Positions 57,001-60,000 of a stretch of DNA of 64,000 nucleotides are shown in pieces; position 1 is the stretch's first letter; the number at the start of each line of letters is the position of its first letter. Location of the stretch: NCBI RefSeq assembly GCF_054482595.1, contig NZ_CM137008.1. One strand, written 5' to 3'. A program made the position numbers.

Positions 57001-60000
57001 GGTATCGCTCTCCGGCAACAAACGCCGCAGCGTACTGAACCTTGACGGTCAGTTAGTCGATTACAGCCAGGGCCGTAACTATACCGCCCATCTGGTCTGG
57101 CCTAACAATATGCGCGAAGGCAACGAAAGCAAACTGACGCTGGTTGGTGCCAGCGGTGGCGCACCGCGCAGTATCAGCTTCAGCGGGCCGTGGGCGCAGT
57201 TCCGCCTGTTCGGGGCCGGACAACTGACCGGAGTACAGGATGGCAACTTTACCGTGCGCTTTAGCGTGGACGGTGGCGCGATGACCTACCGTGTGCATAC
57301 CGACACGGAAGATAACCCGTTCAGCGGTGGGTTGTTCAGCCAGTTTGGTCTGTCAGACACACTGTACTGAGGAAGCAGGGATGAATAGTAACGTACTGAC
57401 ACAAACTATCGTTACCGGCAGTGACCCGCGCGGGCTGCCGGAATTCAGCGCCATCCGCGAGGAAATAAACAAAGCCAGCCACCCGTCACAGCCTGAGCTG
57501 AACTGGAAACTGGTGGAGTCGCTGGCGCTGGCGATTTTTAAAGCCAACGGTGTGGATTTACACACCGCCACCTACTATACGCTTGCCCGGACACGGACAC
57601 AGGGACTGGCGGGATTCTGCGAAGGTGCGGAACTGCTGGCGGCAATGGTAAGCCACGACTGGGATAAGTTCTGGCCGCAGGGCGGCCCGGCGCGTACTGA
57701 AATGCTGGACTGGTTTAACTCCCGAACCGGCAATATTCTGCGTCAGCAAATCTCCTTTGCGGAATCCGACCTACCACTGATCTACCGCACAGAGCGGGCA
57801 TTGCAGCTTATCTGCGATAAGCTCCAGCAGGTGGAACTGAAGCGCGTTCCGCGCGTGGAGAATCTGCTCTATTTTATGCAGAACACGCGTAAACGGCTTG
57901 AACCCCAGCTGAAGAGTAACACTGAGAACGCCGCACAGACCACGGTCAGAACGCTGATTTATGCCCCGGAAACACAGGCATCTTCCACACCAGAAGCGGT
58001 AGTGCCTCCCCTGCCCGGCCTGCCTGAGATGAAAGTGGAAGTGCGCAGTCTGACAGAGAATCCCCCACAGGCCAGTGTGATAAAGCAAGGCAGTACGGTA
58101 AGAGGGTTTATCGCAGGGATCGCCTGTTCAGTGGCTGTCGCCTCAGCATTGTGGTGGTGGCAGGTCTATCCGGTGCAGCAGCAACTGTTACAGGTTAACG
58201 ACACCGCTCAGGGCGCAGCAACGGTGTGGATGGCCTCACCTGAACTCGAAAACTATGAGCGCAGGCTGCAACAACTTCTTGATACCTCCCCGGTACAGCC
58301 GCTGGAAACCGGGATGCAGATGATGCGTGTTGCCGACAGTCGCTGGCCGGAAAGCCTGCAACAGCAACAGGCCTCGACACAATGGAATGAGGCACTCAAA
58401 ACCCGCGCACAGAATAGCCCGCAGTTGCGTGGCTGGTTGCAGACCCGCCAGGACTTACATGCTTTTGCAGATCTAGTGATGCAGCGCGAGAAAGAGGGAC
58501 TAACCCTTTCCTATATCAAAAATGTCATCTGGCAGGCGGAGCGGGGACTGGGGCAGGAAACACCCGTTGAGTCTCTGTTGACGCAGTACCAGGATGCCCG
58601 TGCGCAGAAGCAGAATACAGATGCGCTGGAAAAACAAATTAATGAGCGACTCGAAGGCGTGTTAAGCCGCTGGCTGCTGCTGAATAATAATACGATACCG
58701 ACGATAAAAAAAGGCATTGAATTTCAATAACATTCATGAATACAAAGGAGTTTTAAATGGCGAATTTAATTTATTTAACACTAAATGGTGATAATCAAGG
58801 GCTCATTTCAAGTGGTTGTTCATCACAACCATCCATTGGAAATAAAGCTCAAACAGCACACATTGATCAAATTATGATTTATGAATTCATGCATGGATTA
58901 AATCGAGATCAAAACGTCAACCATCATCATTTGACAATAAAAAAACCTATAGATAAAGCATCACCCTTATTAGGCAAAGCAATTTGCGACAATGAATTAT
59001 TGACATGTGATTTTTCCTTTTATCGTACAAATAAATTTGGAATTAATGAACTGTACTATAAAATCAAATTAACTGGAGCAAAGATAAGCGACATTCATGT
59101 CTCTATATCACATATTGTTGTTGATAACAGCGTTCAACCCGAAGAGTCAGTTTCTTTCAGTTATGAGTCAATTATATGGGAGCATTGTTCCGCTGGCACT
59201 AGTGCATACAGTTTATGGGAAGATCGTCTTTTTTAAAAACATATGGGATTATTATAATGGCTAACAATATTTTACACTCTTCAACATCAGACAGTGAAAG
59301 CAAAAATACAAGCACTGACAGTACGTTATTTAATGAAAAATTCCCATTTCAACTAAGACAAGATTTCGCATCAAGAATAACAGAAGATGAAAGTGATTTT
59401 TTTAAATGGAAAAAAATAAGAGAGTTGGCATTTGTGAGCAATCATAAAGAATGGAATAAATATGACTTATTAATTTTAAAATCTGTTAATGAAATCAACA
59501 TTCATTTGTCCAGCACTCCATACTTTCAGCCGTTGGATTGGTATATAATAAAAGCCATGCTCTGGACTGAAAACGATGCGGAAAATACTTCTCAGTGGAA
59601 TGGGTATCCATTACAAATTGGTCGTTTTCGGAAAGATAAAGCGATGCCAGCCTTAATCTCTGGAGAAAAATCTACAGCCCTTGTTACCCCACCACAATGG
59701 AGAAACAAAGCATTCAATGGGTTAAAAGATCCAGAAAGAAATTACTGGGCAAAAGAACAAATAACTGGCTCTCCAGAAGAGAATATCAAAGCAGCAATTA
59801 CTTACTTAATGATGAAACTTTCTAATACAAAGGAAGAATCAACTATCGATCAATATGACTCAACTCTATATAGCGCCATTGTCCAAAAAGGCGATTTGGC
59901 TGACAACATCAGAAAAGAGAGAAAAACGACCATACCTAACTTAACGAAAAACAATCCTGGAAAAAATCTCGATAAAATACACCCGGGAGATATTTTATAT

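Follow-up and report, generated by a model that had tools for sequence, protein, structure and literature searches.

The window, that is, the whole 64,000-nt stretch of DNA that was analysed, belongs to an E. coli chromosome and carries a T6SS cluster. The cluster is flanked by fadE, ivy and yafV on the upstream side and by yafT, tRNA-Asp, dnaQ and rnhA on the downstream side, which puts it at the aspV tRNA locus. The main gene run reads tssB, tssC, tssE, tssF, tssG, tagH, tssJ, tssK, tssL, tssH, vasI, tssA, tssM, vasL, hcp, with a divergent hcp-vgrG-Rhs arm upstream of it. The Rhs-carrying cluster type is called 'T6SS2' in PMC6730261, after Journet and Cascales, and EHEC clusters of the aspV type fall into phylogenetic group 1 (PMC10433429). 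The gene studied here, tagA/vasL, stands between tssM and hcp (Table 1). Its ORF begins with an ATG at 57381, 10 nt past the tssM stop, and ends with a TAA at 58728-58730; the ATG is preceded by GAGGAA, a Shine-Dalgarno-like motif. A longer frame, with a GTG start at 57291, overlaps the end of tssM; RefSeq and all homolog alignments take the ATG. RefSeq names the product 'VasL domain-containing protein' and lists it in 2950 E. coli genomes. Lytic-transglycosylase motifs were suspected in a downstream 312-aa ORF but found no support in relaxed Pfam and PDB sequence searches, and PADLOC returned zero matches and thus no hint of a role in a defence system.

Table 1 Features of the tagA/vasL locus (nt positions in the window; aa positions in the TagA/VasL protein).
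Feature	Position (nt)	Strand	Basis or remark
tssH/clpV with in-frame TAG at codon 273 of 912 (nt 49748-49750)	48932-51670	+	
Cognate long tssA, expected TagA partner	52415-53827	+	ImpA_N and VasJ C-terminal domain
tssM	53846-57370	+	TIGR03348 E 5.8e-284; RefSeq start corresponds to 53936; stop 10 nt before tagA start
tagA/vasL gene, 449 aa (TagA / class B TssA-like / 'TsmA' T6SS accessory protein)	57381-58730	+	ORF; Pfam ImpA_N and VasL; RefSeq name; EAEC homology
N-terminal all-helical domain, aa 8-175; predicted cytoplasmic TssA/sheath-binding module	57402-57905	+	Pfam; partial TIGR03362; AlphaFold; fold match
Low-confidence Pro/Ser/Thr/Gln-rich linker, aa 176-238	57906-58094	+	pLDDT 42-59; poorly conserved, gap-rich columns
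Single hydrophobic helix GFIAGIACSVAVASALWWW, aa 242-260	58104-58160	+	Kyte-Doolittle; within predicted 36-residue helix aa 239-274
VasL domain (PF12486), aa 292-434	58254-58682	+	Pfam
A7 homopolymer setting the frame of the last TagA residues	58706-58712	+	A6 in O157:H7, giving a 469-aa product that overlaps hcp

In the encoded protein, ImpA_N, one hydrophobic helix and VasL follow each other, the three-part architecture by which the TagA / class B / 'TsmA' family is defined. TagA was defined as ImpA_N followed by a transmembrane region and a VasL domain, with VCA0121 as its V. cholerae member, and this architecture corresponds to class B of Schneider et al. 2019, for which the name TsmA was proposed (PMC6745524). 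At the N-terminus, Pfam matched ImpA_N (PF06812) to aa 12-113 (nt 57414-57719; E 7.7e-20; 71.6 bits against a cutoff of 26.9), so that the domain search bears out the first-pass annotation, which had noted a second ImpA_N protein beside the canonical tssA. In an AlphaFold model built with an alignment of 72 sequences (mean pLDDT 85), the all-helical N-terminal domain is larger than the Pfam match, spanning aa 8-175 with pLDDT >95. Its best fold match in the PDB was 6hs5, the N-terminal domain of B. cenocepacia TssA (E 6.7e-4), and a sequence match to the TssA chain 6rju was obtained as well (E 2e-6).

This kinship with TssA is confined to the N-terminal part. The TssA of the cluster is canonical (TIGR03362 E 1.6e-150; T6SS_VasJ E 2e-70; ImpA_N present). 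The TagA/VasL protein matched the TIGR03362 TssA equivalog over model positions 14-210 only (E 8.2e-24), its 84.5 bits lying below the cutoff of 230.1, and Pfam found no T6SS_VasJ domain in it; on these two counts it is not a TssA proper (class A). We also considered tagA/vasL as a recent duplicate of tssA and rejected this, because pairwise BLASTP between the two proteins gave an E value of only 0.25. Long TssA proteins (class A / TsaC), such as that of the cluster, have the ImpA_N N-terminal fold in common with TagA/VasL, but they end in a VasJ oligomerisation domain, lack a membrane helix and ride the growing end of the sheath, whereas TagA/VasL combines a membrane helix with a VasL domain.

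The segment GFIAGIACSVAVASALWWW, which had been proposed as a hydrophobic anchor, holds up as a predicted one. It is the sole hydrophobic segment of the protein, its best Kyte-Doolittle 19-mer scoring 1.69 and the runner-up elsewhere 0.88, and the most hydrophobic 19-mer falls in the same columns in 71 of the 72 full-length homologs (median 1.98). A second segment scoring at least 1.6 occurs in three homologs, in two of them near residues 70-73 of about 455. Beyond the helix, the VasL domain (E 7.8e-23; 81.5 bits against a cutoff of 27.3) covers model positions 1-146 of 147. The C-terminal part had previously been described as a Gln-rich tail. Its composition stands, as aa 261-449 contain 14.8% Gln and Gln richness is a trait of the family (median 11.9%). 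The word tail does not: aa 276-435 form a folded, all-helical domain in the model (pLDDT about 86). Fold searches with the VasL domain against the PDB gave generic helical-repeat matches only, and we therefore draw no functional inference from them; as modelled, the domain appears to be a helical-repeat module of roughly 160 residues without a solved relative.

A HMMER search of 1.84 billion representative proteins returned 856 relatives at E <= 0.001, 140 of them at E <= 1e-30; the source databases call proteins of this family VasL or 'VasL domain-containing protein'. The 72 full-length homologs of the family alignment are 21-85% identical. Family members are typically 446-451 aa long, with clusters of 1949 and 3152 members at 450 aa. 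The features of tagA/vasL are not chance ones: the gene is conserved at 25-43% identity across dozens of genera. We scanned one genome per species with a 10-sequence alignment as query and took the best 80 related loci, all of which belong to Enterobacterales and Aeromonas (genera include Citrobacter, Lelliottia, Buttiauxella, Rahnella, Yersinia, Serratia, Morganella, Providencia, Pectobacterium, Brenneria, Dickeya and Lonsdalea). Upstream of vasL, tssM lies on the same strand in 79 of these 80 loci and ends within 300 nt of vasL in 75; tssA precedes tssM in 76. Vibrio is absent from the best 80 loci and likewise from ten distant representatives (Pantoea, Proteus, Gilliamella, Rouxiella, Erwinia and others). 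Within E. coli, a 1.6-kb stretch around tagA/vasL was matched in 2950 of 5426 complete genomes, with at least 80% query coverage in 2687, and is 100% identical in at least 13 complete genomes, strain XH990 among them.

Two characterised TagA proteins serve for comparison. Likened by gene order and family, V. cholerae VasL (VCA0121; 'TagAV', class B, TsmA) occupies the same place in a tssA-tssM/vasK-vasL order, in which vasK is VCA0120. The V. cholerae cluster has vasH, sitting between clpV and vasI, whereas the E. coli aspV cluster is without vasH. The first-pass annotation had put the gene directly downstream of tssM, in the position of vasL, and this agrees with the V. cholerae order VCA0119/vasK/VCA0121, where VCA0119 and VCA0121 are the locus tags of TssA and TagA (PMC6745524). 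The V. cholerae and window proteins belong to the same Pfam family, which is named after VasL, and their systems to the same T6SS phylogenetic group 1 (PMC10433429). A bioRxiv text that uses 'VasL' for Tle2 concerns a different protein and is irrelevant here.

The second protein is TagA of the EAEC Sci-1 system. Its ORF in EAEC 042 (L005:34070-35437; 455 aa) is intact and was assigned to EC042_4550 (TagA) by counting genes from tssA, EC042_4540 (PMC6745524). It contains the same Pfam pair around one hydrophobic helix, is close in length (455 versus 449 aa) and can be aligned with TagA/VasL end to end: aa 12-433 match aa 9-449 of the EAEC ORF at 28% identity (BLASTP; E 7e-48). Each of the two goes together with a long TssA that has a VasJ C-terminal domain, the TssA type that co-occurs with TagA (PMC7896307). 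They differ in that EAEC TagA represents another paralogous lineage and cluster type, Sci-1 being a phospholipase-carrying 'T6SS1' and the cluster of the window a Rhs-carrying aspV 'T6SS2' (PMC6730261). In addition, EAEC tagA stands apart from tssM, outside its cluster at a distance of about 4.4 kb from the cluster end, whereas tagA of the window follows tssM after 10 nt. TagB/TagJ resemble TagA in being accessory factors that act through TssA to stabilise the extended sheath (PMC7896307), but they are unrelated in sequence, soluble, about 30 kDa in size and located on the baseplate side, and they go with a short TssA in T6SS groups 3-5.

Based on the three-part architecture, the full-length homology to EAEC TagA and the conserved tssA-tssM-tagA order, all computed here, the gene product is very probably the TagA/VasL accessory component of the V. 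cholerae-like T6SS at aspV, acting as a distal sheath stopper or clamp and as an efficiency factor rather than a core component. By analogy with characterised homologs, the hydrophobic helix would anchor TagA in the inner membrane. After the sheath has crossed the cell, the protein would be captured at the TssA-capped distal end, as is TagA of EAEC and V. cholerae, and the captured protein would halt polymerisation and clamp the extended sheath until contraction. Sheaths formed without TagA would be expected to over-elongate, bend, detach or break, with killing efficiency lowered, not abolished.

A distal stopper role for membrane-anchored TssA-like proteins, given as a proposal in the first-pass annotation, has advanced beyond that stage: it was demonstrated by imaging and deletion for TagA of EAEC (Santin 2018, as summarised in PMC6745524 and PMC6730261) and of V. 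cholerae (PMC6745524, PMC7545191). For both proteins, membrane localisation, TssA binding and distal-end recruitment are established (PMC6745524, PMC6450956, PMC7545191). The literature also reports that after tagA deletion in EAEC and V. cholerae the sheaths grow too long, bend and detach and contract productively less often, and that killing in EAEC goes down to about 12%; in V. cholerae, a drop in killing was seen only in a sensitised background, and the brightness of TagA spots suggests a hexamer (PMC6745524, PMC6730261, PMC6450956, PMC7545191, PMC7896307). The family, its architecture and its role are thus already known, having been published in 2017-2020, and the gene is already in RefSeq and present in over half of complete E. 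coli genomes. It can confidently carry the label tagA/vasL, and the sole scientific question that it touches concerns what the VasL domain does and in which compartment.

On this question our literature search found no determined TagA topology, the protein being called just 'membrane-associated' or described as having a transmembrane domain. The alignment of 72 homologs offers several clues. Lys/Arg content is higher on the N-terminal flank of the helix in 55 homologs and on the C-terminal flank in three, and aromatic residues occur at both helix ends. The helix is entered through a signature [KR]-W-[KR]-G-F-x-A-G, with G246 in 71 and F243 in 58 of the 72 sequences; the invariant Gly and small residues in the helix would fit helix-helix packing within an oligomer. 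The helix of this ortholog is marginal, with a Hessa-scale sum of +1.8 kcal/mol versus a family median of +0.45. Because the N-terminal domain must be cytoplasmic to meet TssA, and because there is one hydrophobic helix with a positive-inside bias and aromatic residues at both ends, we tentatively predict a single-pass transmembrane helix with a cytoplasmic N-terminus and the whole VasL domain in the periplasm. We put this prediction at somewhat less than an even chance, and it is the mildly novel part of our analysis. If true, TagA would be a trans-membrane tether whose periplasmic domain could be fastened either to the cell wall or to TssM/TssJ in their periplasmic portion, which could explain how the clamp withstands the force of the growing sheath. 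mNeonGreen is able to fluoresce in the periplasm, and pull-downs can unite proteins of separate compartments. For V. cholerae TagA, a C-terminal mNeonGreen fusion gave fluorescence at the membrane (PMC6745524), a result that bears on the topology but does not decide it.

Two other functions have to be weighed against the distal stopper. TagA might mainly regulate the initiation of assembly at the membrane complex through TssA-TssM-TagA interplay, either by sequestering TssA or by gating sheath priming. The coupling of tagA to tssM in 75 of the 80 loci speaks for such a role, as do several properties of V. cholerae TagA: about 10% of events show it at initiation sites, its overproduction abolishes sheath assembly, and it binds TssM, TssL, TssE/F, Hcp and VgrG (PMC6745524, PMC7545191). 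However, more than 80% of V. cholerae TagA foci appear at the distal end after full extension, and deletion results in over-long bent sheaths, not in extra initiation (PMC6745524), which makes a principal role in initiation unlikely. The close tssA-tssM-tagA linkage fits the reported interplay of the three proteins, and 'distal clamp' may not cover the whole function of TagA, because the V. cholerae protein is also present at initiation sites, blocks assembly when overproduced and binds many T6SS proteins (PMC6745524, PMC7545191). We give almost no credence to the idea that TagA/VasL is a redundant second TssA, a cap or priming protein able to replace the canonical one. It draws on the ImpA_N domain common to both proteins and on the partial TIGR03362 match, which is limited to the N-terminal 210 model positions.

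The distal stopper assignment also has to be reconciled with the state of the system in this strain, where vasL could be a functionless relic, its T6SS crippled by the clpV/tssH nonsense codon and its own 3' end frameshifted. In XH990, PGAP flags tssH with an 'internal stop' and the identical vasL allele as a 'frameshifted' pseudogene, the latter because of the A7 run. The frame with A6 in O157:H7 reads on for 27 codons into hcp. The two frames diverge at aa 444, ten residues past the VasL domain, and SE11-type lineages, with 450 aa, have yet another C-terminal tail. Most genomes cease to match the window in nucleotide sequence at about nt 58690, the junction with a variable hcp-cargo module. 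The exact A7-type 3' end is present in 42 complete genomes, so that a sequencing error can be dismissed and the allele taken as real; 321 genomes, including O157:H7 strains, show 95-99% identity. As the frame change touches only residues after aa 443 and leaves a product of usual family length, the pseudogene flag on vasL is probably misleading and harmless; judged by the family, the 449-aa product is of normal length and the 469-aa O157 product the unusual one.

The stop codon in tssH weighs more heavily. Of 5426 complete genomes, only 12 have the TAG at codon 273, so that the lesion looks recent, and full-efficiency firing of the T6SS in this strain is doubtful because the cognate clpV/tssH carries this premature stop. 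In EAEC, however, a clpV deletion reduces T6SS activity yet leaves it measurable (bioRxiv 10.1101/2025.02.08.637259), and the system here may therefore be weakened rather than dead. The core T6SS genes in the window other than tssH are intact ORFs. Together with the allele data on the 3' end, these points make a relic rather improbable, if less so than a principal role in initiation, and the clpV nonsense codon, not vasL, is most likely the lesion that limits T6SS activity in the strain.

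Nucleotide identity to the window stops at about nt 58690 in most E. coli genomes, within the last codons of vasL and ahead of a variable hcp-cargo module. The VasL C-terminus was seen in three different forms (449, 450 and 469 aa), and a homopolymer at 58706-58712, present as A7 or A6, acts as the switch between two of them. The same homopolymer triggered the "frameshifted" flag that PGAP placed on vasL. By its position, the region 58757-60958, comprising the second hcp and three further ORFs, looks like an Hcp-linked effector/immunity module. Family and PDB sequence searches with the 312-aa ORF returned no match, and in the PGAP annotation of the matching strain XH990 it appears as two features, a partial pseudogene and a gene of 198 aa.

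Annotation also bears on the experimentally studied tagA of enteroaggregative E. coli 042. Its ORF is intact and encodes ImpA_N plus VasL; RefSeq/PGAP splits it into three "partial pseudogene" features (ImpA N-terminal, POTRA and VasL), a division that looks like an annotation artefact.

Features of the T6SS region and of the E. coli 042 tagA locus (window coordinates unless an accession or locus is given)
Feature	Coordinates	Strand	Length	Remarks
VgrG, Rhs core protein and TPR protein	30344-37967	-	Rhs core protein ~1470 aa	divergent arm of the T6SS cluster
tssH/clpV with in-frame TAG	48932-51670		912 codons	TAG at 49748-49750 (codon 273)
vasL 3' end/hcp-cargo junction	58690-58800			final vasL codons at the junction
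Second hcp	58757-59236			downstream of vasL
ORF	59215-60153		312 aa	first of three ORFs after the second hcp
Protein	60150-60605		151 aa	hydrophobic N-terminus; LprI/DUF1311 match sub-threshold
Protein	60602-60958		118 aa	hydrophobic N-terminus
EAEC tagA (E. coli 042)	L005 (recovered locus):34070-35437 = NC_017626.1 4884070-4885437		455 aa	ImpA_N + VasL; experimentally studied

In some E. coli genomes vasL is represented only by its 3' portion, which abuts tssC, tssD or vasI, and many database proteins consist of a T6SS protein fragment fused to the VasL C-terminus. Together, these truncated copies and fusions suggest that the T6SS cluster has undergone recurrent internal deletions with a breakpoint within vasL. 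In O157:H7 DEC4E (L002:2498-5990), tssM is annotated as frameshifted directly 5' of an intact 469-aa vasL, a further case of lineage-specific decay in the aspV-linked T6SS. The window has a lesion of its own in tssH/clpV, where one base in the 77-mer around the TAG separates it from its relatives. Just 12 of the 5426 complete E. coli genomes share the exact TAG-containing 77-mer, and the stop codon accordingly looks like a recent lesion of a small clone that includes XH990.

Base composition swings sharply around the Rhs arm, from a GC content of 0.37 at 30-32 kb to 0.625 at 32-36 kb. A truncated ISAs1 transposase adjoins this arm.

A second flagellar system is represented at positions 1-20700 of the window by flgM, flgN, fliE to fliJ, fliM/N-like genes, fliP, fliQ and fliR, together with flhB, flhA and a sigma-54-type regulator; by position these genes are assigned to the E. 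coli Flag-2 lateral flagellar cluster. This cluster is apparently intact in XH990.
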